A DNA stretch of 64,000 nucleotides, taken from Dehalococcoidia bacterium (lineage in GTDB: Bacteria; Chloroflexota; Dehalococcoidia; Lucifugimonadales; UBA3495). Location of the stretch: the NCBI GenBank assembly GCA_965220625.1, contig CBDCQN010000003.1, forward strand, positions 1,994,186 through 2,058,185. Reading direction: 5' to 3'. The stretch's first letter is position 1. Every line of letters starts with the position of its first letter. Position numbers and translations under genes: made by a program. This document shows positions 1,680 to 60,832 of this stretch, in pieces. Under the pieces are notes generated by a model. The model was not told where the DNA came from and did not search any database. It saw only the letters and a list, made by a program, of their open reading frames with translations.

Positions 1680-1910
1680 TCAGGTAAAGTCGAAAACTTT
1701 CACTTCGGCTATTCTGGTGGGTTTGCCGCTTTCATGGATGGCCCGACGGACTTTTTCGGTAATTTCCACGCTGAACGATTGCTCACCACAACGCCCGCAA
1801 ATCTCCGCCGGTACACCCCTGACAGCGAAGTATTCACCATCGATCTGAAAGACATCGTCGACCAGCTCCACTCGGCTGACCTTGGAACCACAAACCGCGC
1901 ACTTAAACAT
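1680..1910 (-). CDS. YgiT-type zinc-finger protein (MqsA-like antitoxin N-domain type)
   Basis: MFKCAVCG...VPAEICGRCGEQSF gives two CxxC pairs with the YgiT/MqsA zinc-ribbon layout. Start trimmed to ATG 1910, which overlaps the stop of a small upstream ORF (ATGTTTAA). Confidence 0.7.
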   Translation of the reverse strand: MFKCAVCGSKVSRVELVDDVFQIDGEYFAVRGVPAEICGRCGEQSFSVEITEKVRRAIHESGKPTRIAEVKVFDFT

Positions 1911-2007
1911 TGCTACCTCCGGACCGAGTAGTCCACCCACTCACCGCGTCTGGCTCATACAGAGTAACGATCTTGACCAGATCGGTGTCGGCCAGAGACA
2001 CCTGCAT
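1903..2007 (-). pseudogene. possible decapitated DUF4258-like toxin remnant upstream of the zinc-finger gene
   Basis: The frame reads ...GIPVKWRNRSNKMQVSLADTDLVKIVTLYEPDAVSGW, which resembles the C-terminal half of DUF4258-type toxins. No full-length ORF exists. The frame runs nonsensically into the mutS2 3' end. Confidence 0.25.
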
Positions 2008-2075: not shown

Positions 2076-4511
2076 CTAGCGAATCTCCACCACCGTGACG
2101 CCGTCGCCTCCGGGGCCCTCGCCGTTGGCGGCGGATACCACCAGGGGGTGGTCGGCCAAGTACTCCCGGACGGCGCGGCGGAGGGCTCCGGTTCCCTTGC
2201 CGTGAATGATCCTGAACTCGCCGGCGCCGTCGAGGGCGGCGTTGTTGAGGGCCGCGTCCACCTTGGCGACCGCGTCATCGACACGAAGACCGCGCAGGTC
2301 CAAGTCCCCACCGGAACGCCGCGGGGCAGTCGTCCGGCTGAGGTAAACCCCTTGCCGGGCCGCTACGGCGTGTCCCTCAGCACGGCGCTCCAATTGGTAT
2401 ACCGGTATTTTGGCCCGCATCGTGCCCAGCAGCACTTCCAAGCGGTCCTGTTCGTCCGGCGGGGTGATGACCTCCACCGGCTGGCTGATGCCGCGAACAT
2501 AGACCCGGTCTCCTTCTTTGAGGGACTCCTGCCACCGGGACCGTTTGACCTCTATCGGTTGCCAGTCAGTGGATTCAAGCTGACGCTGTACCTCCCGGAT
2601 CTCAACCCGTTGCTGTTGTACCTGGACAGGCGTCTCCGGGCGTTCCAGCAACCGTTCCGCGCGTCTCAACCCGTCCAGGATGCCGGCTATCCGGTCCTGA
2701 AGTTCCTGTCGCGCTTCCTCCACCAAGGCCGCCTTGGCGCTTTCCACCGACGACAACTGCTCTTCCAGGTCTCTCTGTTGCCGGGAAGCCTGGGTGCGGG
2801 CCTCCTCCGCCTCTTCCCGCAAACGCTCCACCACCAGCCGTTCCTGCTGTAGCTCGTGCAACAAATTATCCGTGGCTTCCTGCGCCGGGGATATTCCGGA
2901 ACGAGCGTCTTCGATAATAGGTCCGGGGATTCCCAGCCGGGCCGCGATGGTCAGAGCATAGCTTCTGCCGGGCATACCAAGGGTCAGATGGTAGGTGGGC
3001 TCCAGGGTACCGGGATCCAGGTCGACACTGGCATTGACCATACCGGGTTGTTCCTGGGCCGTTCTGGCCACGCCTCGATGGTGGGTGGTGGCCACCAGGA
3101 AAACGCCTTTGTCCCTGAAATAGCGCAGGATCGCGCTGGCCAGGGCCGACCCTTCTTCGGGATCGGTGCTGGCGCCCAACTCGTCGGCCAAAACAAGGGA
3201 CCGGACAGTGGCCCGGTTCATTATCGATATGAGGTTGGTCATGTGGGAACTGAAGGTCGACAGCGACTGCTGGATGCTCTGTTGGTCGCCGATGTCGGCG
3301 TAGACGCCATCGAAGCAGGGGAGATGGGCTTCGTCGGCCGGGACGTGCAGACCCGCATGGGCCATTATCGCCAAAAGCCCCACCGTCTTCAGGGCCACCG
3401 TCTTGCCGCCGGCGTTGGGCCCGGTGATCAGCATCACCCCGGCTTCCGTGCCGAGTTCCACAGTCACCGGGACCACCCTTCCCGGCAGCAGGGGGTGGCG
3501 CGCCCGTACCAGCTTCAGACTCCGTTCCGGCGTCTCTTGAGACGCCAGCCACGGGGGGACTGCCTTGAGGGCGGCCGAGTAACGGGCCTTGGCCGTGTTC
3601 AGATCCAAGCGGGCTACGAGGTCCAGTGTTAACAACAGGTCTTCGCCGCTTTCTCCCACGAGACCGGAAAGCTGCCGCAGCACCCGCTCTTCTTCCCTCT
3701 CTTGGGCCAGACGCGCTTCCCGCCAGCGGTTGCCCAAATCGATGGCCTGCATCGGTTCGACGAAGACGGTGGCCCCGCTGTCGGAGACATCGTGGACGAT
3801 CCCGGGCACCCGCGGCCGCATCTCGGTCTTGATCAAGAGCACCATGCGGCCGTTGCGTTGAGTGATCAGTGGCTCTTGCACCAATTCCTGGCGTTGCAGC
3901 CGGCGCAGGTTCCGCTCCATTACCTCGTTGAGACGGTTCTGGGCCTGGCGGGCCTCGGTCCGCAACCGCCCCAAGACGGGACTGGCATGGTCCAAGACCT
4001 CTCCGGCGGGGCTGATGGCGCCTGTGATATCCCGTTCCAACTGGGACACGTCCGGGATGTCGCCCGCGATGCGGGCCAGCATCGGCATTCGTTCCTGGCG
4101 GGCCAGGACGGAGCGGTCATAACGAGCGGCGCGGGCCAGTTCCCTTACGGCGTAGAGTTCGATGCCCCGCAGAAGACCGCCCAGCAGCGCACGCTGCAAC
4201 AACTCGCGGAAGTCCTGCTCCGGTCCGAATTCCAGCGCGCCGGACTGTTCCAAGAACTGCCTGGCTTCGGTCGTTTCCTGCTGGCGGGTGGCGATCTCCA
4301 AAAGGTCTTGGGAAGGAGTGAGAGACATCGCCCGCTCCCGGCCCACGACCGTACGGGTATAGGAAGCCAACTGCAGCCGGATCTGGTCGAACTCCAGCAG
4401 CGACCCCGCTTGGCGAAAGCCGTCCAAGGCGCCGGGCGGAGGAACGGTATCGACGGGGAGCGTTGCGTCCTGACCCGGCTGTTCAGCGTCCAATTCAGTG
4501 TCGTTCAACAA
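2076..4511 (-). CDS. mutS2: endonuclease MutS2 (MutS domain plus C-terminal Smr domain)
   Basis: 811 aa. Walker A ITGPNAGGKT, MutS ATPase core, and C-terminal Smr (DLDLRGLRVDDA...IIHGKGTGALRRAV). Confidence 0.95.
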   Translation of the reverse strand: MLNDTELDAEQPGQDATLPVDTVPPPGALDGFRQAGSLLEFDQIRLQLASYTRTVVGRERAMSLTPSQDLLEIATRQQETTEARQFLEQSGALEFGPEQDFRELLQRALLGGLLRGIELYAVRELARAARYDRSVLARQERMPMLARIAGDIPDVSQLERDITGAISPAGEVLDHASPVLGRLRTEARQAQNRLNEVMERNLRRLQRQELVQEPLITQRNGRMVLLIKTEMRPRVPGIVHDVSDSGATVFVEPMQAIDLGNRWREARLAQEREEERVLRQLSGLVGESGEDLLLTLDLVARLDLNTAKARYSAALKAVPPWLASQETPERSLKLVRARHPLLPGRVVPVTVELGTEAGVMLITGPNAGGKTVALKTVGLLAIMAHAGLHVPADEAHLPCFDGVYADIGDQQSIQQSLSTFSSHMTNLISIMNRATVRSLVLADELGASTDPEEGSALASAILRYFRDKGVFLVATTHHRGVARTAQEQPGMVNASVDLDPGTLEPTYHLTLGMPGRSYALTIAARLGIPGPIIEDARSGISPAQEATDNLLHELQQERLVVERLREEAEEARTQASRQQRDLEEQLSSVESAKAALVEEARQELQDRIAGILDGLRRAERLLERPETPVQVQQQRVEIREVQRQLESTDWQPIEVKRSRWQESLKEGDRVYVRGISQPVEVITPPDEQDRLEVLLGTMRAKIPVYQLERRAEGHAVAARQGVYLSRTTAPRRSGGDLDLRGLRVDDAVAKVDAALNNAALDGAGEFRIIHGKGTGALRRAVREYLADHPLVVSAANGEGPGGDGVTVVEIR

Positions 4512-4571
4512 AAAAGCCCAGTATGTCGAATAGGGACGAATCGGTGCTGGGGAAGCGCGGGAGGGCGGTCA

Positions 4572-5300
4572 TTACCAAGCGACTGTCCAGACCCGGCTCT
4601 CCCGAATCATCAACCCCACTGATTCCAGCGTATCACGTTTGGGGTCGCGGATGTTGAGGCGCCGGGGCAGGGTGATGGCCGACAGCGCGGCCAGTGATGG
4701 ACATTGCTTGAGCAGGCCGTTCAGGGTGAACTTCTCTCCTCCCAACAGTACGTAGTCCAGACTGCCTGGAGCCAATCGCTGGCGAACTTCTTCGCATACT
4801 TTGTCGTAGAGCCGTTTCACTTGGCCCTCACGCACCCTGGTATACCGGAGCTGCGAAGTGCCGCCGGCGTGGTGCTTGCCCTTTACGTAGCGTGAGTCGG
4901 TCTTGGAGGCGACCAGCCTGTCGCCTTGGTACAGGGCAACCGAAAACCGGCCGAGACGGACCAGCACCACTCCCACCGTGAAGTCGCTGTCCAAGAGTTG
5001 CCGCAAGGGAGAGTCGTCCCATCCATCAATCGACCGCGTCTCCCGCACTGGGAAGGGCGGCGCGATGAGTAGCCCCCGGCTGCCCGAACGCAGTCCCACG
5101 ACGCCGCAGCCATTCTCCTCGACTAGAGGCCCCAACTCCCGGAGGTGCTGGCTCCAACCCGGGCCGACGCTGGCGTCCACGGCCGCGCCGGGGGTCAGGT
5201 ACAACGACGAACTGCCCTCGTTTTCCGGCTGCGAGGCGATTCCGTCCAGCATGCGAGTCAACCGGCCCGCAGGAATCCATTGTCCGGCCAAATCCATCAC
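4572..5300 (-). CDS. Vms1/VLRF1-type (acVLRF1-like) peptidyl-tRNA hydrolase, eRF1-fold
   Basis: VVLVRLGRFSVALYQGDRLVASKTDSRYVKGKHHAGGTSQLRYTR matches the actinobacterial/chloroflexal VLRF1 pattern (GG-x-SQ-x-R-F/Y-x-R) as I remember it. Lies 61 nt upstream of mutS2 on the same strand. Confidence 0.65.
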   Translation of the reverse strand: MMDLAGQWIPAGRLTRMLDGIASQPENEGSSSLYLTPGAAVDASVGPGWSQHLRELGPLVEENGCGVVGLRSGSRGLLIAPPFPVRETRSIDGWDDSPLRQLLDSDFTVGVVLVRLGRFSVALYQGDRLVASKTDSRYVKGKHHAGGTSQLRYTRVREGQVKRLYDKVCEEVRQRLAPGSLDYVLLGGEKFTLNGLLKQCPSLAALSAITLPRRLNIRDPKRDTLESVGLMIRESRVWTVAW

Positions 5301-5320: not shown

Positions 5321-5370
5321 AGGGCGGAGAGCACAGTGTCCGCCTCTGCGGTCTTCGCGCTCTCCGCGGT
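5321..5370. repeat. palindromic GGAGAGCAC-type intergenic repeat
   Basis: gcggagagc (5324-5332) pairs with gctctccgc (5359-5367). Related palindromes occur at 8120-8158 and 26440-26533. Confidence 0.6.
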
Positions 5371-5413
5371 TATAGTAAACTGGGCCAAGACATTCCGGCC
5401 AGCAGGAGGAGGC

Positions 5414-6217
5414 TTGACTGCGGAAGATTTCGACTCGTTATCGCGGCGGCGAGACCAGGCCTTGGTCCGGCTAGACGAGGGTCACCGGGCGCTCACCAAC
5501 TCCCTCGCCGGGCTCGACCCGGAGGAAGCGTTCCTCGGCTCCCGCTGGTCGGTACGCGAGGTGCTGCTCCACCTGGACTCGGAAAACTTCATCGACGCTC
5601 TGGAGAAGTTTGCGCGAGGCGAGCACGAAATGCTGCCTCCCTTCTCGACCCGCGAGGAAGAGCTGAAGAAGGAAATCGCCCACATGGAGGAAACGCATCA
5701 ACGGTTTCGCTCTCTGGTAGCCGGACTCAACCCGGCACAGCTTGGCCAACCCGTAACACCGCCGAACCCGGAGAACGCCTTCCCCGGCCTGTCCCTGCTG
5801 GAGCTGATCGAACGGGTCTGCGGCCATGAAGCGTCCCACGCCCGGCAGATCGAGCTGACCCGCAAGTACGTCGCCGCCTTCCGCTCACAGGAACGGGCGC
5901 TTAACATCGTCGCACTGGGCGACGGCAGCCCGGCCCGCCTGTCGCAGGGCGTCAAAGACCTGCTGAACATGGCCGACTACGTGGTGGGAGAACCAGCGGC
6001 CCTGGAATTGGTGAGCCGTTGGACCCGTGGGGTCGAGCTGACCCTAACCGACGATAACACCGAGGAACTTATCGCCAGAATGGGGCGCGAAGTGCAGGCC
6101 GGACTCTGGGCGGTGGTCTGCTGCTTCGGCGACCCGGCAGCCGACGGCAACGCCATTGTGACCTTGGCCCACCAGCACGCCGACGCGGTGGCGGTGTACG
6201 GGCCGGCGGGGGAATAG
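5414..6217 (+). CDS. DinB-family domain protein with C-terminal tetrapyrrole-methylase-like half domain
   Basis: N-terminus has a DinB-like four-helix pattern (WSVREVLLHL...CGHEASHARQI). C-terminus has IVALGDGSPARL...ADYVVGEP...CCFGDPAADG, like the N-subdomain of TP methylases. Start moved to TTG 5414, preceded by AGGAGGAGG. Confidence 0.55.
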   Translation: MTAEDFDSLSRRRDQALVRLDEGHRALTNSLAGLDPEEAFLGSRWSVREVLLHLDSENFIDALEKFARGEHEMLPPFSTREEELKKEIAHMEETHQRFRSLVAGLNPAQLGQPVTPPNPENAFPGLSLLELIERVCGHEASHARQIELTRKYVAAFRSQERALNIVALGDGSPARLSQGVKDLLNMADYVVGEPAALELVSRWTRGVELTLTDDNTEELIARMGREVQAGLWAVVCCFGDPAADGNAIVTLAHQHADAVAVYGPAGE

Positions 6218-6228
6218 GCCGGTTGGCC

Positions 6229-6723
6229 TTATCCCAAGGCGACAGGTTCCCACTGCAGAGGGATATCCAGCAGAGTCCCTTGCAAGCGTTCAAGGATTGG
6301 CCGATAACTATCGGCGGGCTCAAGCCTTACCCGCAAATATACAGGCGCATCGCTGCTGACAATCAAACGGTGTGCCGTTTCCATTACTGCGGCCAGCATC
6401 CGGCACTGCTCCGGATAGTCTACGTCTCTGCCGCCAGGCCCGCGCAGCCACAAGACTGAAATCCGATGATCGTCTATCAAATTCCGGTGTTTGCGACGGG
6501 CAAACCAATCGCCGGTAATCCATAATGCCCGGTGACCAGCTTTGGCCCCCAGATGACGAATTATATCTTCGTCTGGGAGAGGAACGACGGACAGATCCCG
6601 ACCGGGCCACTCATCCCAAACCGTCGCGATCGGGTATCCGGTCAATCTGGATACACTTGGAACAATACCCGAACTCAAAGATTCGTCAATGAGGAAGAAC
6701 GGCTCAGACGTTGACGGCCGCAA
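6229..6723 (-). CDS. PIN-like (DUF5615-like) putative toxin
   Basis: FFLIDESLSS...PDEDIIRHLGAKAGHRALWITGDWFARR resembles DUF5615/Mut7-C type PIN-like proteins. Overlaps the upstream DUF433 gene by 20 nt. Confidence 0.5.
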   Translation of the reverse strand: MRPSTSEPFFLIDESLSSGIVPSVSRLTGYPIATVWDEWPGRDLSVVPLPDEDIIRHLGAKAGHRALWITGDWFARRKHRNLIDDHRISVLWLRGPGGRDVDYPEQCRMLAAVMETAHRLIVSSDAPVYLRVRLEPADSYRPILERLQGTLLDIPLQWEPVALG

Positions 6724-7336
6724 GCTGCCTTTCCCATTCCAAGGCGTTCAACACCCGCTCTTTGGTCAGCCTGTATCCATCCGCTAAATTCTCAACGCTA
6801 TCCCCACGTTTCAACATTCCGGGGAATATGCAGGTCGGAGTTCGCGTTCCGATTACACACGGGCTGCCGGATACAACGCCGGGGTGGATTACAACGTCTT
6901 CAAAGGGCCGCCATATGCAGGCGACCCCTTCGCTGTCAAACTCCAGGTCCAATGGAGAATTGTTCAGAGAGCAGAGGGAGAGTATCTTGAGAAAATAGCT
7001 TATCGTTTCGCCTTCAAGCGCACTGAGATCAGAAAAACTCCACAAGGCCTTGCTGGCGAAAGGCCACTCCACACCCAACTCCCGCCTGAGCGAGAGGCCG
7101 GATTCGTTGATGGCGCCGACGGACACTCCCCGAGCGTAAAGCTGGGAAATCAGCCGCAGGGAAATCATGGCACGGAAGTCAATGTATTTCTCCCCTTCCC
7201 AAATGTCATCCCACTCCAGCGACGCAACGCCTGCGTCGACCCAATCCCGCAACTGCTTTTCGGAGAGTCGTTCCGCACCGGACTTCTCATTGGACCAAGA
7301 GATGAGCCGCGCCGCTTTCGCTGCCTCGTAACTCAA
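6704..7336 (-). CDS. DUF433 domain protein (putative antitoxin partner)
   Basis: C-terminal GSPCVIGTRTPTCIFPGMLKRGDSVENLADGYRLTKERVLNALEWE matches the DUF433 signature. Operonic overlap with the PIN-like gene. Confidence 0.65.
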   Translation of the reverse strand: MSYEAAKAARLISWSNEKSGAERLSEKQLRDWVDAGVASLEWDDIWEGEKYIDFRAMISLRLISQLYARGVSVGAINESGLSLRRELGVEWPFASKALWSFSDLSALEGETISYFLKILSLCSLNNSPLDLEFDSEGVACIWRPFEDVVIHPGVVSGSPCVIGTRTPTCIFPGMLKRGDSVENLADGYRLTKERVLNALEWERQLAAVNV

Positions 7337-9624: not shown

Positions 9625-9665
9625 GTCGGCCAAATAATCACGAGGGCGTGTTCGCGGGACTTGCG

Positions 9666-10922
9666 ATGACTGCTGACCCTTCCACCCTTTCCGCCACCCA
9701 GAAGAACCTTTGGAGCGCCATTGTCTCCGAGGCGCTGGCCAACCTGAAGTACAACGCCTACGCTCAGCGCGCAATGCAAGAAGGCCACCCGGAGATCGCC
9801 CGGATTTTTCAGGAAGTGGCCGTCGCCGAGACGGAGCACGGCGTCAACCACCTGCGCGTGTCGGGCGACGTGGCCACCACGGTTGAAACCCTCCGGACGA
9901 TCACTCACGGCGAGGCCAGGGAGGCCGCAACCGTTTATCCCCGGATGATCCAGGCAGCCTTGGCCGAAGGCAACCAGGAAGCCGCCGATTCCTTCACCAT
10001 AGCGATGGAGCAGGAGTGGAGTCACCTGGAGACGTTCATCGAGGCGCTCGAAAACCTCGAAACCAAGCTGGCCGTCGAATCAGGACGTATCCGTCCGGCA
10101 GTGCCCGAAATTCCGCTCATGCCCGCCGGACCGGAGGCGGTTTCAACCGCGTCGGACGGCTCGTCTCAGGCTGGCACGGCCGCTGCACCGGTCTTCGACC
10201 GTGGCACCTACAATACGGCCGTCGGCGAACTCGACCAGGAACGCTGGCGGGTGGCGCGCATGGGGCGGCTCCGCGAGGTCGTATTCGGCGCCCAGGACGG
10301 CCTGCTCAGCACCGTCGCGCTGGTGACCAGTCTGGCTGTGGCCGTGGAGAGCCAGACCACCATCCTGGTAGCGGGACTGGCCGGAGCACTGCCCGGCATG
10401 ATATCGATGGCCACTGGAGCCTTGCTTGGCTCACGCGCCGAGCAGGACGTGCAACGCGCCGAGATCGAGCACGAAGCCCAGGAACTGGAAACCAACCCTG
10501 CCGAGGAATTAGCCGAACTTGTGGTGCTTTTCCAGCGGGAGGGCATGACCTACCGGGACGCGAGGCAGGTCGCCGACGAAATCTCCCAAGACCGTGGCCT
10601 GTGGTTGAAGACCCTCGTCGAGAAGGAGCTGGGCATCAGCGCGGAAGTCACCTCCAATCCGGCCAAGGATGCCATGGCGATGGGCCTGGCCTTCATCTTG
10701 GGCGCGGCCGTCCCGCTGGTCCCCCACTTTTTCCTGACGGGCGGAGAGGCCATCGGCGTCTCGGTGGGAGCAACGCTGGCCGGGCTCTTCACGCTGGGGC
10801 TGGTCAAAGGACGCTTGGTGCAGCGCGCCCCGCTGCTCCAAGGCCTCGAAATCCTGGGCATCGGCGCAATCTCCGCCTGCGTCGGTTACGCCTTGGGCGC
10901 ACTAATTCCCCGGCTGTTTTAG
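9666..10922 (+). CDS. ferritin-like (rubrerythrin-type) domain fused to VIT1/CCC1 iron transporter domain
   Basis: N-terminus has an ExxH di-iron pattern (ALANLKYNAYAQRA...AETEHGVNH...AMEQEWSH). C-terminus has VIT1/CCC1 TM helices (VFGAQDGLLSTVALV...). ATG 9666 preferred over GTG 9648. Confidence 0.8.
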   Translation: MTADPSTLSATQKNLWSAIVSEALANLKYNAYAQRAMQEGHPEIARIFQEVAVAETEHGVNHLRVSGDVATTVETLRTITHGEAREAATVYPRMIQAALAEGNQEAADSFTIAMEQEWSHLETFIEALENLETKLAVESGRIRPAVPEIPLMPAGPEAVSTASDGSSQAGTAAAPVFDRGTYNTAVGELDQERWRVARMGRLREVVFGAQDGLLSTVALVTSLAVAVESQTTILVAGLAGALPGMISMATGALLGSRAEQDVQRAEIEHEAQELETNPAEELAELVVLFQREGMTYRDARQVADEISQDRGLWLKTLVEKELGISAEVTSNPAKDAMAMGLAFILGAAVPLVPHFFLTGGEAIGVSVGATLAGLFTLGLVKGRLVQRAPLLQGLEILGIGAISACVGYALGALIPRLF

Positions 10923-12073: not shown

Positions 12074-12272
12074 GAAGTCGGAAGCCGGGATGACTCATGC
12101 CGTGGGTTCAGCCATCGTCCGCCGACAATTAGGTGAGCCTGCCCGCCAGCCGGGGCATTCCTTTTGGAGACCCCCGGTGCTATGATTGCCCGGTTGTTTT
12201 CATCTTGCCCGGTCTCATTTGTCCACCACGAATCCAGACGTTGCACTGACGTCAAGGGAGTACCCCCACCCG

Positions 12273-12893
12273 ATGACCACCGACGCGGTCCAGCTACAAC
12301 TCGAACCCAGGGAACTGCTTCGCAAAAAGGTGGGCCGTCTGCGCCGCGCCGGCATAGTGCCGGTGCACCTGTACGGTCCCGGGATTGAGCCCCGCGCCCT
12401 GCAATGCCCCGCTCCCCGTCTCATCCAGGCCCTGTCCCTGGCGGGAGCGAGTACTCCGATTTCCATAAAAATCGAAGGTGAGTCCGGTACCCACTTAGCC
12501 TTCGTCAGGGAAATCCAGTGGGACCCCCGGCGGGATGACCTCGTCCACGTCGATCTGTTGGCGGCGGACGTCGGCCGCCTGTCGACAGCCCAGGTCACCA
12601 TTGTCTTGGTGGGTGAGTCCTCCGGAGCCCAGTTGGCCGGCGGGAACGTGGTGCAGCAACTGCGCACCATAGACGTTCAAGCTCTGCCTCTGGACATGCC
12701 GGCCCAAGCCGAAGTAGACCTCTCCACGCTCACCGACCCGGATGGCACTATCAGGGTGGCGGACCTGGGTCTGCCGGCCAACGTAACGGTGCTGACGGAC
12801 CCCGAAGAGGTGATAGCCCGCATCGACGTGGCCCGCGCCGGTGCGATTGACGGAGCAGAAACCGCACCGGCCGACGACCAGCCCGGCGGATAG
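12273..12893 (+). CDS. rplY: 50S ribosomal protein L25 / general stress protein Ctc
   Basis: RELLRKKVGRLRRAGIVPVHLYG and HVDLL...VTIVLVGES match the Ctc-form L25 layout. ATG 12273 preceded by GGGAG. Confidence 0.85.
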   Translation: MTTDAVQLQLEPRELLRKKVGRLRRAGIVPVHLYGPGIEPRALQCPAPRLIQALSLAGASTPISIKIEGESGTHLAFVREIQWDPRRDDLVHVDLLAADVGRLSTAQVTIVLVGESSGAQLAGGNVVQQLRTIDVQALPLDMPAQAEVDLSTLTDPDGTIRVADLGLPANVTVLTDPEEVIARIDVARAGAIDGAETAPADDQPGG

Positions 12894-12925
12894 CAAACGG
12901 CAAGTCATCTTATGGAGACGGCGTC

Positions 12926-13693
12926 GTGTACCTAGTCTACATGGGCCAGTCGGGCGATACCGGCAACAGCACCGCAGACCCTTCCCAACCCCACCAAGTC
13001 TACACCGGCCTGCTGGTCCATGAGACCCAGGTCGTATCCATGACCGGGGAGTTCGACGCCCTCTGCCGCCGCCATTTCAGTTATCCCTTGGGCGAATCGG
13101 GAGCACCCCGGGGGATCCGTCCGGTCGATGTATTCCACGGCTTGCGGCACTACACATCATGGCCCCAAGCGAAGCGCAATGAGTTAATTCAAGACTGCCT
13201 GAACATAATGGTCCGGCGGGAATCCCCTGTGATCGCCGCCTACATCGACAAGCGGGAACTGGCCGACGCCAAGGCCGCCGGCGACTCCCCCAGCGCCCTC
13301 TGGAAGAATCCTACTGAACCTATTGTCAGCCGGTTCCTCTTTGCCCTCAACATGTTCTTGGACGAGATGAGCATGTCCACCCTGTCCCACGACCAGATCA
13401 TGGGGGGGCAACTCCCAATTTCAGATTTCGCCTTGGTGGTGGCCCAGCAGCGGGACTCGGTGGAGCCCCGTTTCTTAACTGAATTCCTGCGCTCCGAAGA
13501 CGGGCAGGACGCCACCGCCATGCTGAGCAACTTCTGCTTCGTTACTCCGGAGTATTCAGTGGGCACACAGCTCTCCAACCTCTGCGCCTACTTCGCCCGG
13601 CGCTGGCTGCAGCACCCATCCCGTCCCCAACCCTATTTCGAAGCCCTCCGGGACAACCGGGTAATCCAGGTCATTTACCCTGTAACCGTCTAG
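12926..13693 (+). CDS. DUF3800-like protein with substituted signature residues
   Basis: Layout YLVYMGQSGD...FHGLRHY...VIAAYIDKREL...SVGTQLSNLCAY parallels DUF3800 (yiDESG...QlADl). DE is replaced by GQ and AD by SN. Confidence 0.4.
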   Translation: MYLVYMGQSGDTGNSTADPSQPHQVYTGLLVHETQVVSMTGEFDALCRRHFSYPLGESGAPRGIRPVDVFHGLRHYTSWPQAKRNELIQDCLNIMVRRESPVIAAYIDKRELADAKAAGDSPSALWKNPTEPIVSRFLFALNMFLDEMSMSTLSHDQIMGGQLPISDFALVVAQQRDSVEPRFLTEFLRSEDGQDATAMLSNFCFVTPEYSVGTQLSNLCAYFARRWLQHPSRPQPYFEALRDNRVIQVIYPVTV

Positions 13694-13822
13694 GCGTTAA
13701 CGCCCGGTCTTCTTTACAACGCCCGGTTCCGAGATTACAATCGGCGCCAGTAGAGACGGCGCTTTGCGCGGCTTCTACTGTGTTTTTATCCCCGGTGGTT
13801 ACCTCCGGTAGTTGGAAGAAAG

Positions 13823-14290
13823 ATGCCCCAGCCTATTTACCTGACGAGAGAGGGACTAGAAAAACTCCAGGCTGAGTTGGAGCACCTGCGTACCGTGCGC
13901 CGCCACGAAGTCGCGGGGAGCATTCAGCAGTCACGGGAACGCGGCGGCACGGTGAGCAACGCCGAATATGAGGACGCAAGAAACGAGCTTGCCTTCACTG
14001 AAGGCCGCATCCAAACCCTGGACAACATGGTTAACAACGCACTAATCATTGAAGAAAACCGCAGCGCCGCCGACGCCGTGGAGGTAGGAGCCAAAGTCAC
14101 CGTCCAAAATCAGGAAGGCAAGTCATACCAGTACACAATTACCGGCAGCGCTGAAGCGGACCCATCCCAAGGAACAATCTCCAACGTTTCGCCGATAGGC
14201 CGCAGCCTGTTGGGCAAAAAGGTTGGCGAGATCACCGAAGTAAGCGCGCCCTCGGGAAAGATCAAGCTCGAAATTCTGGCTATCGAATAG
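13823..14290 (+). CDS. greA: transcription elongation factor GreA
   Basis: 155 aa. LTREGLEKLQAELEHL coiled coil plus C-terminal FKBP-like domain (ISNVSPIGRSLLGKKVGE). Confidence 0.95.
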   Translation: MPQPIYLTREGLEKLQAELEHLRTVRRHEVAGSIQQSRERGGTVSNAEYEDARNELAFTEGRIQTLDNMVNNALIIEENRSAADAVEVGAKVTVQNQEGKSYQYTITGSAEADPSQGTISNVSPIGRSLLGKKVGEITEVSAPSGKIKLEILAIE

Positions 14291-14351
14291 GCCCGGTACG
14301 GCCGGCGTGATAGACATCCCCGCAGCCCGCCGCGCCGACTGAACGGTTTTT

Positions 14352-15869
14352 ATGCCCGACCGAGAAGAGTCCCTTCTGTCCAACCGTGCCGCCAAGTTGC
14401 AACGCCTTCGCGGCAACGGCATCGACCCCTACCCACCGCGTTACCATCGCACCTTCGACGCCGCGACCGCCGCCAAGACTTTCGAAGCCGTCGAGGCGGG
14501 GCAGCAACCGGAAGACGCCTCCCTGGACGTGTCCATAGGAGGCCGCATCACGTCCATGCGCGTCATGGGGAAAGCGGCGTTCCTAGACCTCCAAGACGGG
14601 TCCGGCAACCTCCAGGTACTGATGCGCCAGAACAATCTGGGCGAGGGCTTCGGCCTGCTGAAGGACCTGGACATCGGCGACCACCTGGGGGCCCGGGGCA
14701 ACCTCATCCGGACCCGGACGGGCGAAATCACGGTCGACGCGAGTCAGGTGACGATCACCTCCAAGGGTATGCGCCCTCTTCCCGAAAAGTTTCACGGGCT
14801 GCGCGACACCGAGACCCGGTTCCGCCAACGCTACCTGGACCTCATCGCGAACCGCGACGTGATGCCCGTGTTCGCCCTCCGCAGCAAGGTCATCAGCGGC
14901 ATTCGGCGATTCCTGGACGCCCGGGGGTTCCTGGAGGTCGACACACCGATACTGGTGCCGGTGGCCGCCGGGGCCCACGCCCGTCCGTTTGTCACGCATC
15001 ACAATGCCTTGGACCAGCAGCTTTACCTGAGAATCGCCACCGAGCTGTATCTGAAGCGTCTCATCATCGGGGGATTCGACAAGGTGTACGAGTTGGGCCG
15101 GGTCTTCCGGAACGAGGGAATAGACCAGGACCACAACCCCGAGTTCACCCTTCTGGAAAGCTACGAGGCCTACGCCGACTACAACGACGTCATGGAAATG
15201 GTCGAGCAGATGGTCTTCCAAGTGGCCACCGACACCCTGGGGACGGCCCGGGTCGAAGTGGGAGAAAACATCGTGGATTTCACGCCGCCGTGGCGCCGCG
15301 TGGAGTTGCGCCAGGAGTTGTACGCCCGGGGCGGGATCGACCTTGACGCCGGTTCCGATCAAGAGCTGCAACGCCGGGCCGCCGCCTTGGGAATAGACAC
15401 CGGCGCAAGGGAGAGCCGGGGCCGCATCATCGACAAGCTGCTGTCGTCCCTGGTGGAGCCCCACCTGATACAGCCGACCTTCGTGCTGGACTACCCCGAG
15501 GAGATGTCGCCCTTGGCCAAGGCCAAGCCGGGAACGCCGGGGTACGTGGAACGGTTCGAGGCCTTCGCCTGCGGCATGGAGATCGCCAACTCCTATACTG
15601 AGCTCAACGACCCCCAGGTACAGCGGAAACGCTTCGAAGCCCAAGAGGAGATACGCCGCCTCTACCAGGACGAAGAGGTGGACCGTCAGGACGACGATTT
15701 CCTCACCGCCATGGAGTACGGCATGCCCCCCACCGGCGGGTTGGGGGTCGGAATCGACCGGCTGGTGATGCTGCTGTCGGGCCAGACCTCCATCCGGGAC
15801 GTAATGTTGTTTCCACAGATGCGCACCAGGCGGGACGGTTCAGAAGGGGATTCCATAGATGTCGACTAA
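14352..15869 (+). CDS. lysS: lysine--tRNA ligase (class II)
   Basis: 505 aa. OB anticodon domain and class II motifs (FRNEGID..HNPEFT, GGLGVGIDRLVMLL). Confidence 0.97.
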   Translation: MPDREESLLSNRAAKLQRLRGNGIDPYPPRYHRTFDAATAAKTFEAVEAGQQPEDASLDVSIGGRITSMRVMGKAAFLDLQDGSGNLQVLMRQNNLGEGFGLLKDLDIGDHLGARGNLIRTRTGEITVDASQVTITSKGMRPLPEKFHGLRDTETRFRQRYLDLIANRDVMPVFALRSKVISGIRRFLDARGFLEVDTPILVPVAAGAHARPFVTHHNALDQQLYLRIATELYLKRLIIGGFDKVYELGRVFRNEGIDQDHNPEFTLLESYEAYADYNDVMEMVEQMVFQVATDTLGTARVEVGENIVDFTPPWRRVELRQELYARGGIDLDAGSDQELQRRAAALGIDTGARESRGRIIDKLLSSLVEPHLIQPTFVLDYPEEMSPLAKAKPGTPGYVERFEAFACGMEIANSYTELNDPQVQRKRFEAQEEIRRLYQDEEVDRQDDDFLTAMEYGMPPTGGLGVGIDRLVMLLSGQTSIRDVMLFPQMRTRRDGSEGDSIDVD

Positions 15870-16407: not shown

Positions 16408-17674
16408 CCTAATACGCCGGGACCCGGACGGCATCCGCAACGCCATGGACTCCCGGGGCGAGCCCGACCAGATTACCGAACTTCTCGGTCTTGACGCCGA
16501 GTTCCGGCGGTACAAAACTCAGGCCGACGAGATACGCAATCAGCGCAATCAGGTCAACCGGGAGATCGGGCACGCGCGGTCGTCCGGTGAACCCCCTTCC
16601 CCGGAAATCATCGAGCAGATGCGCGGCTTGGGGCGCGAGCTTGATTCCGTCGACAGCGCGGCACAAGCGCTTGAAGAGCGCATCCGCGAAATACTTCTCG
16701 GCTTGCCCAACCCTCCGTTGCCGGATGTTCCCCGGGGTTCCGGGGAAGAGAACAACATAATCGTTCGGGAGTACGGTAAAGTACCGGTCCTCGATTTCAC
16801 CCCGATACCCCACTGGGAGTTGGGCGAGCGGTTGGGAATCATTGATTTCCAGCGCGGGGCAAAGCTCTCCGGGAGCCGGTTCTATACCACTGTAGACCAC
16901 GCGGCAAAGCTCGAACGGGCCCTGATCTTTTGGATGCTGGACCTGCATACCCGGGAGCATGGCTACACCGAGGTGTCCTTGCCCGCAGTGGTGCGGCGGG
17001 ACGTCATGGAAGGGTCGGGCAACCTGCCGAAGTTCGCCGACAACCTCTACCACGACGAAGAGGATGACCTCTGGCTGATACCCACCGCCGAGGTGCCCAT
17101 CACCAATCTCTACCGGGACGAAATCATCCCGGCGGAGTCGCTCCCTCTGTACTACGTGGCCCAAACGCCATGTTTCCGGCGGGAGAAGGCGGCGGCCGGC
17201 CGGGACACCCGGGGCATTAAGCGCGTCCACCAATTCAACAAGGTGGAAATGTACAAGTTCGTCGAGCCCGAGACCTCTCACGACGAGTTGGAGAGCCTCT
17301 TGACCCACGCCGAAGAGGTGTGCCGCCGGCTGGGCTTCGCCTACCGGGTGATACAACTCTGCACCGGCGACATGGGGTTCTCCGCCGCCAAGACCTACGA
17401 CATAGAAGTGTGGGCCGCGGGCTGCCAGGAGTGGCTGGAGGTCAGCTCCTGCTCCAACTGCACCGACTTCCAGGCCCGGCGTTCCAACATCCGGTACCGT
17501 CCGCCGGGAGGAGGGCGACCCCGAGTTCCGCACACCCTCAACGGCTCCGGATTGGCCTTGCCCCGGGTGATGATCGCCATCCTGGAAAACTACCAGCAGC
17601 CCGACGGGTCGGTGGTCATCCCGGAAGTCCTCCGCCCCTACACCGGCTTCGACCGGATCCCGGCGGCTACGTAA
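16394..17674 (+). CDS. serS: serine--tRNA ligase
   Basis: 426 aa. N-terminal coiled-coil arm and class II core (FRREKAAAGRDTRGIKRVHQFNKVE, TLNGSGLALPR). Confidence 0.97.
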   Translation: MLSIDLIRRDPDGIRNAMDSRGEPDQITELLGLDAEFRRYKTQADEIRNQRNQVNREIGHARSSGEPPSPEIIEQMRGLGRELDSVDSAAQALEERIREILLGLPNPPLPDVPRGSGEENNIIVREYGKVPVLDFTPIPHWELGERLGIIDFQRGAKLSGSRFYTTVDHAAKLERALIFWMLDLHTREHGYTEVSLPAVVRRDVMEGSGNLPKFADNLYHDEEDDLWLIPTAEVPITNLYRDEIIPAESLPLYYVAQTPCFRREKAAAGRDTRGIKRVHQFNKVEMYKFVEPETSHDELESLLTHAEEVCRRLGFAYRVIQLCTGDMGFSAAKTYDIEVWAAGCQEWLEVSSCSNCTDFQARRSNIRYRPPGGGRPRVPHTLNGSGLALPRVMIAILENYQQPDGSVVIPEVLRPYTGFDRIPAAT

Positions 17675-17698
17675 GTAATCGTACCGTCTTCGGTAGAA

Positions 17699-18040
17699 GT
17701 GGTGACGTTGCCTAACGCGACGATGGCCCGTGTCGAAGAGTCGAAGGTCTTGACTTATCTCCTGTCGACGTCGCATGAAGACGGCAAGAGCAAGGCCGAG
17801 TTTTTCCTTCGCCACGGATTCTCTCGCGAGCGATGGACCGAGTTCGGGGAGGCGCAGCGCGTCCACGCTCTGATGAACGCCGTTTCAGAGGTTCGGGAAA
17901 GTGAACACGGTACGACGTTTCGCATCGATGGTATTCTTGAAATGCCCGATGGACGAAACTCCAGGATACGTACCGTCTGGTTCATCTCGGCTGACGGCCA
18001 TGTGCCGAGGCTGGCAACTGCCTATCCGCTGGGGAGGTGA
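17699..18040 (+). CDS. DUF6883 domain protein (putative toxin of DUF6883/DUF4926 pair)
   Basis: LPNATMARVEESKVLTYLLSTSHEDGKSKAEFFLRHGF...IRTVWFI...PRLATAYP matches my memory of DUF6883 proteins. Confidence 0.65.
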   Translation: MVTLPNATMARVEESKVLTYLLSTSHEDGKSKAEFFLRHGFSRERWTEFGEAQRVHALMNAVSEVRESEHGTTFRIDGILEMPDGRNSRIRTVWFISADGHVPRLATAYPLGR

Positions 18041-22649: not shown

Positions 22650-23810
22650 GTGAGGCGCAGCCTTATCGGCCGGTACGAGGTTATCACAACTTCTGGAGAG
22701 CAAGTCCGCGCTTTCATCCCCGAACCGTTGCCGCCTGAGCCGTCAATCGACATCGCTTCCCTACAGCCATCTCTATCGCAGGCCCTCGTATCCTTGGGGC
22801 GTTTGGACGGCTTGGCCCGCGTACTGCCCAATACACTCCTCTTCCTATACTCCTATGTAAGAAAAGAGGCTGTCCTCTCCTCGCAGATCGAGGGCACTCA
22901 GTCATCGATATCCGACCTGTTGCTCTTTGAGGTCAGAGAAATGCCCGGGACTCCAACCGGCGAGGTCGTGGAGGTTTCCAACTACGTAAGCGCGTTGGAA
23001 CACGGACTGAATCGCATCACCAACGGATTTCCTCTCTCCAATCGTCTGATACGGGAAATTCACGCCGAGCTGTTGGCCCGAGGCCGGGGCAGCAACCAGA
23101 TGCCCGGAGAGTTCCGAAGATCACAGAATTGGATCGGCGGCAGCCGTCCTGGAACAGCCCACTTCGTGCCGCCCCCTCCACTGGTAATCCCTGACTGCAT
23201 GTCGGATTTTGAGAGATTCTTACATTCGAGTAATCCAGGGCTTGATCCCGTGCTTCGGGCCGGGGTTGCTCATCTCCAGTTTGAGACCATTCATCCCTTC
23301 CTAGACGGCAACGGAAGAGTCGGCCGGCTGCTGATCACGTTGCTGTTATGTCACTCCGGTCTGCTCCGACATCCGCTGCTATACCTCAGTCTCTATTTCA
23401 AAGAGAACCGCGACCGCTACTACGAATTATTGGACTGGGTCCGCCAGACCGGAGACTGGGAGAGTTGGTTGGAGTTTTACCTGGACGGTGTAGCCGAGAC
23501 TGCCGAGAGCGCCGTGCGGACCGCCGAACGGGTCCTCGAGCTCTTCGACGGTGACGAAGCGGCTATTCAACAACAAGGCCGCGTTGCCGGTTCGGCGTTA
23601 CGGGTCCACCAAGCGCTTAAAGAGCGGCCTATTACCTCCCTCCGAGGTGTCTCGGACCGCACCGGGCTATCACCTCCGGGCGCTGCTTCCGGGATGCGTG
23701 TACTGGAAGGACTCGGCATTGCCAAGGAGATGACCGGCCAGATTCGCGACCGGAGATACGGCTACGAGCGGTACATCGCCATCCTGAACGAAGGCGCAGA
23801 GCCCCTGTAA
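22650..23810 (+). CDS. Fic family protein (AMPylase-type) with N-terminal inhibitory motif
   Basis: Fic motif HPFLDGNGRVGR. An upstream SSQIEG matches the (S/T)xxxE(G/N) auto-inhibition helix. C-terminal winged-helix-like region. Confidence 0.9.
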   Translation: MRRSLIGRYEVITTSGEQVRAFIPEPLPPEPSIDIASLQPSLSQALVSLGRLDGLARVLPNTLLFLYSYVRKEAVLSSQIEGTQSSISDLLLFEVREMPGTPTGEVVEVSNYVSALEHGLNRITNGFPLSNRLIREIHAELLARGRGSNQMPGEFRRSQNWIGGSRPGTAHFVPPPPLVIPDCMSDFERFLHSSNPGLDPVLRAGVAHLQFETIHPFLDGNGRVGRLLITLLLCHSGLLRHPLLYLSLYFKENRDRYYELLDWVRQTGDWESWLEFYLDGVAETAESAVRTAERVLELFDGDEAAIQQQGRVAGSALRVHQALKERPITSLRGVSDRTGLSPPGAASGMRVLEGLGIAKEMTGQIRDRRYGYERYIAILNEGAEPL

Positions 23811-45622: not shown

Positions 45623-46411
45623 ATGAAGCTTCGCTTGGACGACGGCACAGAACTGTTCTACACGGTGGACGACTTTACCGACCCGTGGACTGAGCCGGAA
45701 ACCGTGGTAATGCACCACGGCATGGCCAAGAACCACAAGATGTGGTTCGGCTGGGTCCCGGTCATCGCCCGCCATTACCGGGTGATACGCTTCGACATGC
45801 GAGGAATGGGACAGTCGGACGTGCCCGAACCGGGCTACCCTTGGTCATTAGACCACTTTACCGACGATTTGACCGAGGTGGCCGACAAGCTCGATCTGGA
45901 GAAGTTCCACCTCATCGGCGAGACCGTTGGCGGCTCCATCTCCATGAACTACTCCACCAGGCGCCAAGAGCGGTTGCGGTCCCTCGCCGTGTGCACCTCG
46001 CCCACCAGCTTCGATTCCCATCACCAGGAAAGCGCGGCCCTCATCGAACGCGAGGGAATCGACACCTGGGTGGACGAGTCCATCGGACGCCGGTTGGACC
46101 CGCAGATGGTCGACCCGGCCTACATTCGCTGGTACGCCGACCAGATGAAGGCGACGCCGGCACATGTGGTGGCCGGGTTCCAGGCCAACGCCTCCGGCGA
46201 CATCGGCCCCTTGTTGAAAGACGTGCAAACGCCGGTCCTCGTGCTGGCGGCCGCCAACCTGCGAGAGGAGGTGCTCGGCGATTTTCGAGGCGCGGCCGAC
46301 CTGTTCCCCAACGGCAAACGGGTGGTGTTTCCCGGAGTCTACGGGTTCGTGCAACACATATTGCCCGTTCCCTGCGCACGGGCCTGGCTGGACTGGGTCC
46401 GAGACTTGTAG
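45623..46411 (+). CDS. alpha/beta hydrolase (3-oxoadipate enol-lactonase-like)
   Basis: VVMHHGMAKNHKMW and nucleophile elbow GETVGG. Adjacent to the CMD gene, as in pcaC/pcaD pairs. Confidence 0.75.
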   Translation: MKLRLDDGTELFYTVDDFTDPWTEPETVVMHHGMAKNHKMWFGWVPVIARHYRVIRFDMRGMGQSDVPEPGYPWSLDHFTDDLTEVADKLDLEKFHLIGETVGGSISMNYSTRRQERLRSLAVCTSPTSFDSHHQESAALIEREGIDTWVDESIGRRLDPQMVDPAYIRWYADQMKATPAHVVAGFQANASGDIGPLLKDVQTPVLVLAAANLREEVLGDFRGAADLFPNGKRVVFPGVYGFVQHILPVPCARAWLDWVRDL

Positions 46412-46450
46412 GGTGCTCCGCCCACGCTCCCGGAGACAAGACTGCATCGA

Positions 46451-47059
46451 ATGCCGGACAGATTAACCAACCGGGGCCTGTGGCGGCGCAGGAGGCTGGA
46501 CCGGAACCTGGTCTTACGGCGCTTGTTCCACGGGCGGGACCCGGAGACCGGCGACCGATGGATTTGGCGAGACCCGGGATTTGTCGCCCAACCGACCAGG
46601 TTCGTTGTCCAGGCGGGTCTGGCCGCTCTGGTGATGCTGGTCGCCCTGATATTCGTCGATTCACTGTCCAACGCCGCTATCGCCGCCGGGTTGGCATCCA
46701 GTGTCGTAATCATCTTCATCAATCCCTCAAACCGCACGGCTCGGATCAGGGCGGTGGTCGGGGGACACGGCTTGGCGCTGGTCCTGGGTTCCGCCTTCTC
46801 GTTCTTTCTCTTCTTCACGCCGGTGGCGGCGTTCCTGGAAGGGACCGACGTGTTCAGGAACTTGGCGTACGCCTGTGTCGTCGGCCTGTCCGTGCTGCTG
46901 ATGGCAATCACCAACGCGGAGCACCCTCCGGCCGCCGCCACCGCCATCGGGATGGCCAGCCGGGAATGGGAGGCGACCATTTTCGGCAGCATCATCGGGG
47001 CGGTATTCATGCTGGCCTTGATCAAGTTGGCCCTCCGCTCTCACCTACGGGACTTGTAA
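46451..47059 (+). CDS. HPP family membrane protein
   Basis: 4-5 TM helices and NAEHPPAAATAIG containing the HPP motif. Confidence 0.65.
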   Translation: MPDRLTNRGLWRRRRLDRNLVLRRLFHGRDPETGDRWIWRDPGFVAQPTRFVVQAGLAALVMLVALIFVDSLSNAAIAAGLASSVVIIFINPSNRTARIRAVVGGHGLALVLGSAFSFFLFFTPVAAFLEGTDVFRNLAYACVVGLSVLLMAITNAEHPPAAATAIGMASREWEATIFGSIIGAVFMLALIKLALRSHLRDL

Positions 47060-47071
47060 AGGAGCCGGACT

Positions 47072-56477: not shown

Positions 56478-56485
56478 GCTGTTGC

Positions 56486-57211: not shown

Positions 57212-57214
57212 AAA

Positions 57215-58738: not shown

Positions 58739-58986
58739 CCGCCGGTCTCAATGGCGACCTGTTGCGACACATCGAGGGCCGGGATTTCCACCTCCACGGC
58801 GGAGTAGTTGGGCTGAGGGACGGTATCGCCGTCCTCCAGCATCCCTTCGACGTGGAAGTTGGCGGCTTCTTCAATAAGGTTACGGGTTTCCTCGAAGGTG
58901 TCGGCGGCGGCTATGCAGCCGGGCAGGTCGGGCAGGTGGGCCGAATAGCCGTTGCCGGTCTTGCAAATTATTGCCACGTATTTCAT
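58735..58986 (-). CDS. HicB-like (UPF0150, RNase H-fold) antitoxin-type protein without DNA-binding domain
   Basis: MKYVAIICKTGNGYSAHLPDLPGCIAAADTFEE. The stop overlaps the hsdS start (ATGA at 58735-58738). Start trimmed to ATG 58986. Confidence 0.7.
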   Translation of the reverse strand: MKYVAIICKTGNGYSAHLPDLPGCIAAADTFEETRNLIEEAANFHVEGMLEDGDTVPQPNYSAVEVEIPALDVSQQVAIETGG

Positions 58987-59407: not shown

Positions 59408-59432
59408 TTCAACTCCCGAATAATTCTCCTGC

Positions 59433-59666: not shown

Positions 59667-59704
59667 ATATCTCCTGTCAATTATCTACCCGTCTCAACGG
59701 CAAT

Positions 59705-59932: not shown

Positions 59933-59944
59933 CGGGTACTTCTT

Positions 59945-60125: not shown

Positions 60126-60129
60126 TGTA

Positions 60130-60375: not shown

Positions 60376-60377
60376 TC

Positions 60378-60782: not shown

Positions 60783-60832
60783 ATAAGGCCCTCACGCGTC
60801 CATTTCCACCCATTATACCGCCGTCCTCCGGC

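Follow-up and report, generated by a model that had tools for sequence, protein, structure and literature searches.

A conserved acVLRF1-mutS2 gene pair in Dehalococcoidia and a candidate release step for bacterial ribosome quality control

Among the stages of ribosome quality control (RQC) in bacteria, termination is the one least understood, and according to the literature no bacterial factor dedicated to this step is known (PMC11317155). In a 64,000-nucleotide (nt) stretch of Dehalococcoidia DNA (contig CBDCQN010000003.1; this whole stretch is called the window below), a gene of the acVLRF1 family, which belongs to the superfamily of the release factor eRF1, lies directly upstream of mutS2 and on the same strand (Table 1). 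The MutS2 protein of Bacillus subtilis senses ribosome collisions and splits ribosomes at the expense of ATP, which yields 50S subunits obstructed by peptidyl-tRNA (PMC10897456, PMC11317155). Does the arrangement in the window reflect a functional partnership, and if so, could acVLRF1 free the nascent chain once MutS2 has split the ribosome? We find the two genes paired in over 130 related loci, some in one order and some in the other, and that their functional coupling within Dehalococcoidia is well supported. The acVLRF1 family and MutS2 were each known already; what is new is their conserved pairing and, with it, a dedicated eRF1-type release-factor candidate for bacterial RQC. The pairing goes unmentioned in the literature that we retrieved, including PMC6514570, the only paper found to treat acVLRF-1, and PMC10897456, which shares its comparative-genomicist authors (subscription-only papers lay outside the search). 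One other paper that came up cites both MutS2 and Vms1, in sentences that have nothing to do with each other.

The acVLRF1 protein and the MutS2 encoded beside it

Both open reading frames (ORFs) lie on the minus strand at the coordinates that an earlier note on this DNA had given for them, although the spacer between the two genes is 60 nt long and not 61 nt. The upstream protein belongs to the acVLRF1 family. Among Pfam families, PF18859 (acVLRF1) fits it best, matched with 98.6 bits against a gathering cut-off of 27.1 and over profile positions 2-127 of 130, and weaker, overlapping matches were obtained to baeRF_family10 (53.8 bits) and eRF1_2 (37.9 bits). The top NCBIfam match is NF041024 (acVLRF1; E = 1.3e-33), whose 116.5 bits fall a little short of the strict cut-off of 125, a naming threshold and not a family boundary. 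The alternative ATG start lies one codon past the GTG, and a database protein that is 98% identical (P0001) has 241 residues. A search of 1.84 billion cluster representatives recovered 750 acVLRF1-like ones with E<=1e-3, of which 302 reach E<=1e-10. acVLRF-1 proteins have been described as having lost the domain that binds the stop codon and as carrying a short N-terminal extension and a GGxSQ motif (PMC6514570), and the window protein resembles that description in its passing Pfam score, its GGxSQ motif and arginine-rich helix, the loss of the stop-codon element, its short N-terminal region and its origin in Chloroflexota. The peptide quoted in the earlier note (...VLVRLGRFSVALYQGDRLVASK..KGKHHAGGTSQLRYTR...) is present in the translation, and residues 146-157, GGTSQLRYTRVR, hold the GGxSQ motif, as defined in PMC6514570, together with the conserved arginines R152, R155 and R157, which stand at the start of a helix spanning residues 148-175.

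A structure predicted with AlphaFold2 from 61 homologues (mean predicted local distance difference test score, pLDDT, 92.1; predicted template-modelling score 0.88) lays the protein out as a reduced eRF1-type N domain (residues ~1-95) followed by a domain with the RNase-H fold that is like the eRF1 M domain (residues ~96-242), with no C domain. The only softer stretch of the model comprises residues 141-150 around the loop (mean pLDDT 75), which is consistent with flexibility. When the model was compared with the PDB by Foldseek, aRF1 and eRF1 came out on top (E = 1e-11 to 1e-9; aRF1 4af1 at 1.9e-11 and many eRF1 chains near 1e-10), followed by Balon (8v9j_z, 1.8e-8) and Pelota/Dom34 (2e-6 to 1e-4). 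Yeast Vms1 on the 60S subunit (6r84_R) was matched with E = 6.2e-4, a query TM-score (TMq) of 0.45 and a root-mean-square deviation of 5.0 Å over 191 columns; the Foldseek probability was 1.00 to aRF1, eRF1, Pelota and Vms1 alike. A profile search of PDB sequences likewise returned aRF1 (3agk, E = 1.8e-19; 4af1, E = 3.2e-16) and eRF1, and in that search no Vms1 chain was matched at E<=1.

In the profile alignment, the N-terminal 90 residues of acVLRF1 pair with the beginning of the N domain in aRF1. The alignment to 3agk leaves a 17-residue aRF1 segment, which carries NIKL at the NIKS position, without a counterpart in acVLRF1, and it stops at aRF1 residue 264 of 373, with the aRF1 C domain unmatched. 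Because the alignment lacks both the NIKS segment and the C domain, acVLRF1 is best described, on this predicted structure, as an eRF1 derivative cut down to an N-domain stump and a catalytic M-like domain. By profile and by structure, aRF1 and eRF1 are its closest solved relatives, with an M-domain-like core bearing a GG..Q loop and N-domain remnants that align, but acVLRF1 differs from them in the two missing parts, in its loop (GGTSQ as opposed to GGQ) and in being a bacterial gene beside mutS2. Likeness to Vms1 itself is remote. With Vms1/ANKZF1 the protein has in common the superfamily fold, a glutamine-bearing loop after small residues, an expected independence of codons and, as we propose below, a split large subunit with peptidyl-tRNA as its substrate; unlike Vms1, it has no Rei1 zinc finger, ankyrin repeats, VIM or other Vms1 modules (PMC6514570), and its loop reads GGxSQ where that of Vms1 reads GxuQ.

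The downstream gene is mutS2, matching the equivalog model TIGR01069 with 772 bits against a cut-off of 400 over profile positions 6-790 of 790. In Pfam, the ORF matched MutS_V, MSSS and Smr only, with no match to MutS_I, and a Walker A motif (GPNAGGKT) and a Walker B motif (LVLADE) are readable in its translation. In B. subtilis, the KOW domain brings MutS2 to collided ribosomes (PMC10897456, PMC11317155), and by homology with this protein the window MutS2 would be expected to sense collisions and split ribosomes. The two share the ATPase, the KOW-like domain and an Smr domain of the DLR/HGxG kind, along with this presumed sensing and splitting step; they differ in that release in B. subtilis falls to the general peptidyl-tRNA hydrolase Pth, at the end of a pathway running from MutS2/RqcU through RqcH and RqcP/YlmH (PMC11317155), whereas here an eRF1-like gene is linked to mutS2.

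The earlier note had spoken of an Smr nuclease domain. The domain is present, but its nuclease function is probably wrong, because the motif is the DLR of the B. subtilis type and not the DxH of SmrB-type nucleases. In B. subtilis MutS2, whose Smr motif is also DLR, mutation of the motif left splitting intact and mRNA cleavage was undetected, and DxH marks the catalytic state of SmrB (PMC10897456). The DLR motif is not peculiar to the window, since it was also found in 48 of 53 loci of the window's own clade and in 53 of the 54 loci with an Smr motif in a second clade (cluster 35), in which the gene order is reversed (see below).

Conservation of the gene pair

The acVLRF1 and mutS2 genes very probably form an operon in Dehalococcoidia. 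A scan of the 60-nt spacer for promoters and terminators found nothing resembling either, and the spacer has no stable fold (RNA fold z-score of +1.38 against shuffled sequences); we reject a terminator or attenuator within it, none having come up in the scan or the fold. Among 53 homologous spacers the median length is 76 nt, and 18 of them measure 10 nt or less, 3-nt spacers in marine lineages among them.

To what extent has the pairing been kept beyond this genome? We scanned one genome per GTDB species with two narrow patterns (AGGTSQLRY and DKVCEE[VAT]R), which yielded 58 loci, all in Dehalococcoidia/Chloroflexota metagenome-assembled genomes (MAGs). In the close clade, with at least 53% identity to the window protein, acVLRF1 is followed directly and on the same strand by mutS2 in 53/53 loci. 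Most of these loci also resemble one another further out, with a divergent DinB_2/TP_methylase gene lying upstream and a gene for an enoyl-CoA hydratase lying downstream of mutS2. Because the flanking genes are conserved too, the close clade on its own cannot separate selection from synteny.

More distant loci loosen this block. At 38-42% identity, mutS2 lies 1.0-2.8 kb downstream in all four informative loci, with a PIN-type toxin gene and small ORFs inserted between the pair. One protein with 44% identity (P0274) is encoded in a direct acVLRF1-mutS2 pair with quite different flanks, and for three others (P0279, P0356 and P0288) acVLRF1 is followed by an abutting gene for a HicB-like protein of 70-72 residues and then by mutS2.

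Further loci come from a clade (Dehalococcoidales-type) that is only ~35% identical to the window protein and has two named members, one a Chloroflexi RBG_13 MAG and the other a Dehalococcoidales MAG. A metagenome scan, whose query was the alignment of this one clade and which samples that clade alone, returned 80 loci, and in every one whose upstream sequence extends over 300 nt or more (73/73) the order is reversed: mutS2 precedes acVLRF1 on the same strand, with a gap below 200 nt in 71. The remaining seven were too short to be informative, and there were no counter-examples. Two further look-ups in this clade were linked as well, with gaps of 1 nt and 27 nt. The surroundings of the reversed pairs (L075-L154, cluster 35) are diverse, with the commonest outer family found in only 17 of 53 loci downstream of the pair and in 7 of 31 upstream of mutS2. 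Because the outer neighbours vary in this way, it is the pair itself that is the conserved unit, and not a syntenic block.

Taken over both clades, all 126 informative loci are linked, and of 12 further context look-ups six showed the pair. Such adjacency far exceeds what chance would give, and the combination of both gene orders, shuffled flanks and survival through insertions is a classical signature of functional coupling. That the adjacency would extend beyond this one genome was a point on which the earlier note depended: it does so in two deeply diverged clades with opposite orders and unrelated flanks, although linkage was seen in the chloroflexotan class Dehalococcoidia only. The recurrent linkage to mutS2 also revises the 2019 view of prokaryotic VLRF-1 proteins, which were described as stand-alone and independent of other RQC components (PMC6514570); MutS2 was recognised as an RQC factor only after that description.

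Several smaller genes accompany the pair. In the window, the gene divergent from acVLRF1 (5336-6217, plus strand) encodes DinB_2 fused to only the first ~90 residues of TP_methylase, and this fusion gene stands upstream in ~51 of the 53 close loci. On the other side, 135 nt downstream of mutS2, a protein of 86 residues (1680-1940, minus strand) is of the YgiT/MqsA zinc-finger type without the helix-turn-helix (TIGR03831, 37.7 bits). Among the 58 genome loci, 14 have a homologue at the corresponding position, and there is one further weak match in L030. Toxin-antitoxin-like genes recur around the pair. The PIN-type toxin and small ORFs between acVLRF1 and mutS2 fall at 6608-8192 in L054, and the HicB-like gene (PF15919, antitoxin fold), which abuts or overlaps the acVLRF1 stop codon, at 7070-7282 in L068, 6735-6953 in L155-L157 and 6756-6968 in L158. 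Because it is confined to one subclade, the HicB-like gene is no third member of the pair in general. In the window itself, a DUF433 protein (6704-7336, minus strand) overlaps an ORF of 164 residues (6229-6723, minus strand) that has no Pfam match.

A proposed release step and its alternatives

How might the two proteins work together? We consider it highly likely that acVLRF1 and MutS2 act in the same pathway, and we propose that they make up a conserved two-gene ribosome-rescue module in Dehalococcoidia. In a first step, MutS2 would use its KOW-like domain and its Smr domain (DLR/HGxG) to recognise collided ribosomes and would spend ATP on splitting the leading stalled ribosome into a 30S subunit and a 50S subunit that holds peptidyl-tRNA. 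acVLRF1 would suit this subunit, which is without mRNA, because acVLRF1 is missing both a codon reader and a domain for GTPase binding; lacking the NIKS element and the C domain that binds the GTPase and ABCE1, it would not support codon-dependent termination. In a second step, its M-like domain would move into the obstructed 50S subunit on the A-site side, which is vacant, and the flexible GGTSQ loop and the arginine-rich helix would reach the peptidyl-transferase centre. There, the nascent chain would be detached from the P-site tRNA, either by ester hydrolysis in the manner of eRF1 or by a cut at the tRNA 3' end in the manner of Vms1/ANKZF1 (Vms1 has been described as a tRNA CCA endonuclease; PMC11317155), and chain release would recycle the 50S subunit. 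The activity on ribosomal complexes, whether peptidyl-tRNA hydrolase or tRNA-cleaving, is putative for acVLRF1, and we infer the biochemistry of each step. We regard release after splitting as an evenly balanced proposition.

Several observations weigh against this proposal. First, in sequence and structure Vms1 is a more distant relative of acVLRF1 than aRF1/eRF1 are, and more distant even than Balon and Pelota. The earlier note had called the protein VLRF1-type, which stands as a match to the acVLRF1 models (PF18859, and NF041024 a little under its cut-off), with only a remote likeness to Vms1. Second, our literature search found no experimental paper on any acVLRF1 (subscription-only literature lay outside it). 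Third, in B. subtilis the general Pth performs release (PMC11317155), so that by analogy a dedicated release factor would not be strictly required. Fourth, the linkage has limits. MutS2 is missing within 6 kb of the gene in two other acVLRF1 clades (clusters 22 and 26), as it is for one member of the window's broad cluster. In one of the MutS2-less clades (~40% identical; L060, L066, L072-L074) the gene has a divergent rpiB upstream and a convergent short-chain dehydrogenase (SDR) gene downstream, an rpiB-acVLRF1-SDR context of which one example comes from a marine (Tara) metagenome. In the other, acVLRF1 stands between an RsmI-like/KsgA methyltransferase gene and metG, with the RsmI-like TP_methylase gene co-directional upstream. 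A published survey counted neither mutS2 nor rqcH in any of 3,213 genomes of Actinobacteriota (PMC11633108 Table 1). Because Actinobacteriota lack mutS2 and other clades are unlinked, the pairing is not a family-wide rule, and the actinobacterial half of the acVLRF1 family must work without MutS2.

Fifth, the presumed catalytic glutamine is not constant. Among 132 sequences (131 full-length representatives and the window protein), G146 and G147 are each kept in 131, S149 and R152 in 130, and R155 and R157 in 128, whereas Q150 is kept in 94 and replaced in the other 38 (by alanine in 26, serine in ten and arginine in two). The GGTSQ loop is invariant, glutamine included, in the near relatives of the window protein (17/17), and the glutamine is present in 97 of the 104 members of its broad cluster. 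In the reverse-order clade, which is tightly linked to MutS2, alanine or serine takes its place in 27 of 80 loci. Of the GG-x-SQ loop to which the earlier note pointed, the GG-x-S part is conserved across the family (~97-99%), as are the downstream arginines, but the glutamine, invariant in the near relatives, varies across the family. Because it is replaced in 27/80 loci and in 38/132 representatives, a glutamine-dependent hydrolase mechanism is not secure, and within our data this loss weighs most heavily against reading acVLRF1 as a simple GGQ-type hydrolase.

The variation can be read in more than one way. The glutamine could be dispensable for the shared function, another residue could take over, or part of the family could be non-catalytic. 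In 26 of the 27 loci without glutamine the next residue is histidine (GGSS[AS]H, GGSS[AS]HRF), a pattern that may represent correlated replacement. The linkage to mutS2 is itself independent of the glutamine, because all judgeable loci of the reverse-order clade, in which the glutamine varies, are MutS2-linked. Orthologues with and without glutamine that are both linked to MutS2 offer a natural experiment on the question of hydrolase versus nuclease that surrounds the Vms1 clade.

Could acVLRF1 instead act before splitting? Like Pelota/Dom34, it might be a non-catalytic or glutamine-independent A-site factor that binds stalled or collided 70S ribosomes and helps MutS2 to split them. The loss of glutamine from tightly MutS2-linked loci, in which GG-x-S and the three arginines stay near-invariant, would fit such a role, as would the Foldseek match to Pelota/Dom34. 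The Pelota-ABCE1 system, to which eRF1-ABCE1 in archaea and eukaryotes compares, likewise joins an eRF1-superfamily protein to an ABC-type ATPase that splits stalled ribosomes. MutS2 has such an ATPase (MutS_V), and Park et al. expressly draw a parallel between active and inactive members of the eRF1 family and ribosome splitting (PMC10897456). However, membership of the ABC ATPase class is all that relates MutS2 to ABCE1. Pelota consists of three domains and is without a catalytic loop, whereas acVLRF1 lacks the C domain by which eRF1 and Pelota contact ABCE1 and the GTPase, lacks the decoding-centre element, and keeps GGTSQ in the window's lineage, where the glutamine is invariant in near relatives (17/17) and present in nearly all of the broad cluster (97/104). 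Moreover, in vitro the MutS2 of B. subtilis needs no partner of this kind to split disomes (PMC10897456). We consider a Pelota-like role unlikely, although it deserves to be kept in view.

A less probable alternative, which we rate as rather improbable, is that acVLRF1 works independently of MutS2, as a stand-alone rescue factor in the manner of ArfB or as a hibernation factor in the manner of Balon, and is only co-regulated with mutS2; the two genes would have one promoter in common because both respond to translation stress, while their products would not act on one complex. Stand-alone, single-component roles were proposed for bacterial VLRF-1 by Burroughs and Aravind (PMC6514570), and both the clades with no MutS2 nearby and the Actinobacteriota without mutS2 are in keeping with them. 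The Foldseek match to Balon (Msmeg1130/Rv2629) is good, and Balon, too, is a bacterial member of the eRF1 superfamily, one that binds the ribosomal A site. Yet Balon has ~360-375 residues and a C domain that is absent from the 242-residue acVLRF1, which keeps a GG-x-SQ loop and has acVLRF1 as its best Pfam family. Linkage in 126/126 informative loci, with opposite orders and shuffled flanks, also speaks against mere co-regulation, as do the frequent spacings of 1-3 nt or overlaps, which are typical of a shared pathway or complex.

Inherited synteny without functional meaning would explain the DinB_2/TP_methylase and enoyl-CoA hydratase flanks conserved in most close-clade loci, but we reject it as highly improbable, given the reversed order in the ~35%-identity clade (73/73 linked, with diverse flanks), the retention of the pair in P0274 and P0279 despite different flanks, and insertions that leave both genes in place. 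A DNA-side role, with MutS2 as a recombination or repair nuclease joined at nucleic-acid junctions by its RNase-H-fold partner, recalls the historical name 'endonuclease MutS2' (TIGR01069) and would fit the aeRF1 catalytic domain, which has an RNase H fold (PMC6514570), but is hardly credible for a partner that retains the release-factor loop and rRNA-binding arginines and for a MutS2 whose Smr motif is DLR rather than DxH; a role of MutS2 in splitting ribosomes also has experimental support (PMC10897456, PMC11317155).

Its conserved pairing with mutS2 makes acVLRF1 a strong, if putative, candidate for the dedicated step of release that is missing from bacterial RQC. We tentatively suggest, as a possibility that we would not yet bet on, a minimal two-protein RQC in Dehalococcoidia, in which MutS2 splits and acVLRF1, as a dedicated eRF1 derivative of archaeal type, discharges the 50S peptidyl-tRNA, perhaps without RqcH tailing, by a chemistry that tolerates loss of the glutamine (for example cleavage of the tRNA 3' end, or catalysis by the histidine that takes the neighbouring position in the forms without glutamine). 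If true, this route would give bacteria an equivalent of the Vms1 step. In Chloroflexota, mutS2 was counted in 35 of 41 genomes and rqcH in 26 of 41 (PMC11633108 Table 1); because of these counts, at least nine of the surveyed Chloroflexota have MutS2 and lack RqcH. In practical terms, the pair gives a concrete, cloneable candidate for the missing factor, and the disome-splitting and rescue assays that already exist for B. subtilis or E. coli allow this gap in bacterial RQC termination to be tested directly.

The window and its other genes

The nearest relative of the window is a Dehalococcoidia MAG contig (CBDCUJ010000001.1), with 98-99% protein identity across a five-gene block; therefore the source organism is an uncultured member of the Chloroflexota, class Dehalococcoidia. 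The G+C content of the window is ~62%. A Pfam scan of all 64 sizeable ORFs in the 64-kb window found no NFACT/RqcH, S4/RqcP, SmpB, RF-1-domain ArfB or Pth, and ARAGORN found no tmRNA (ssrA) and no tRNA genes in it.

Table 1. Positions of the acVLRF1-mutS2 pair, its parts and other features of the window
Feature	Position	Strand	Remarks
acVLRF1-family gene	4572..5300	-	242 residues from GTG 5300; 241 residues if ATG 5297 is used
GGTSQ loop codons (G146 G147 T148 S149 Q150)	4851..4865	-	counterpart of the eRF1 GGQ loop
Spacer, acVLRF1 stop to mutS2 start	4512..4571	-	60 nt
mutS2	2076..4511	-	811 residues, TTG start; MutS-family ABC-type ATPase paralogue without mismatch-binding domain
MutS2 ATPase domain (MutS_V), residues 360-538	2898..3434	-	PF00488, 122.9 bits
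MutS2 KOW-like/SH3 domain (MSSS), residues 666-704	2400..2516	-	PF20297, 29.1 bits (cut-off 26.8)
MutS2 Smr domain, residues 737-811	2079..2303	-	PF01713, 77.7 bits; DLR ... IHGKGTG
Rubrerythrin-VIT1 fusion protein	9648-10922	+	424 residues
Ribosomal protein L25/Ctc	12186-12893	+	Pfam scan
GreA	13823-14290	+	Pfam scan
LysRS	14352-15869	+	Pfam scan
Fic/DOC-family protein	22650-23810	+	with Fic_N domain
HsdM	54984-56477	-	Type I restriction-modification
Uma2-family endonuclease gene	56486-57211		inserted between hsdM and hsdS
HsdS	57215-58738	-	Type I restriction-modification
HicB-like ORF	near 59744-59929		close to the Type I restriction-modification genes
HsdR	60833-63658	-	Type I restriction-modification

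Among the other genes, a translation and transcription cluster runs from 12186 to 15869 on the plus strand, with an ORF of 255 residues (12926..13693) between the L25/Ctc and GreA genes. In B. subtilis, pth follows ctc at what we take to be the matching position; as a pth gene the 255-residue ORF is unsupported, having no Pfam match. A Type I restriction-modification system occupies 54984-63658 on the minus strand. Three large ORFs match no Pfam family at E<=1e-5: 45742-47739 (plus strand, 665 residues), 16409-17866 (minus strand, 485 residues) and 50164-51501 (plus strand, 445 residues). The third-position G+C of the first is 0.49, compared with ~0.75-0.85 in most genes, and given this low value the 665-residue ORF may be foreign DNA.

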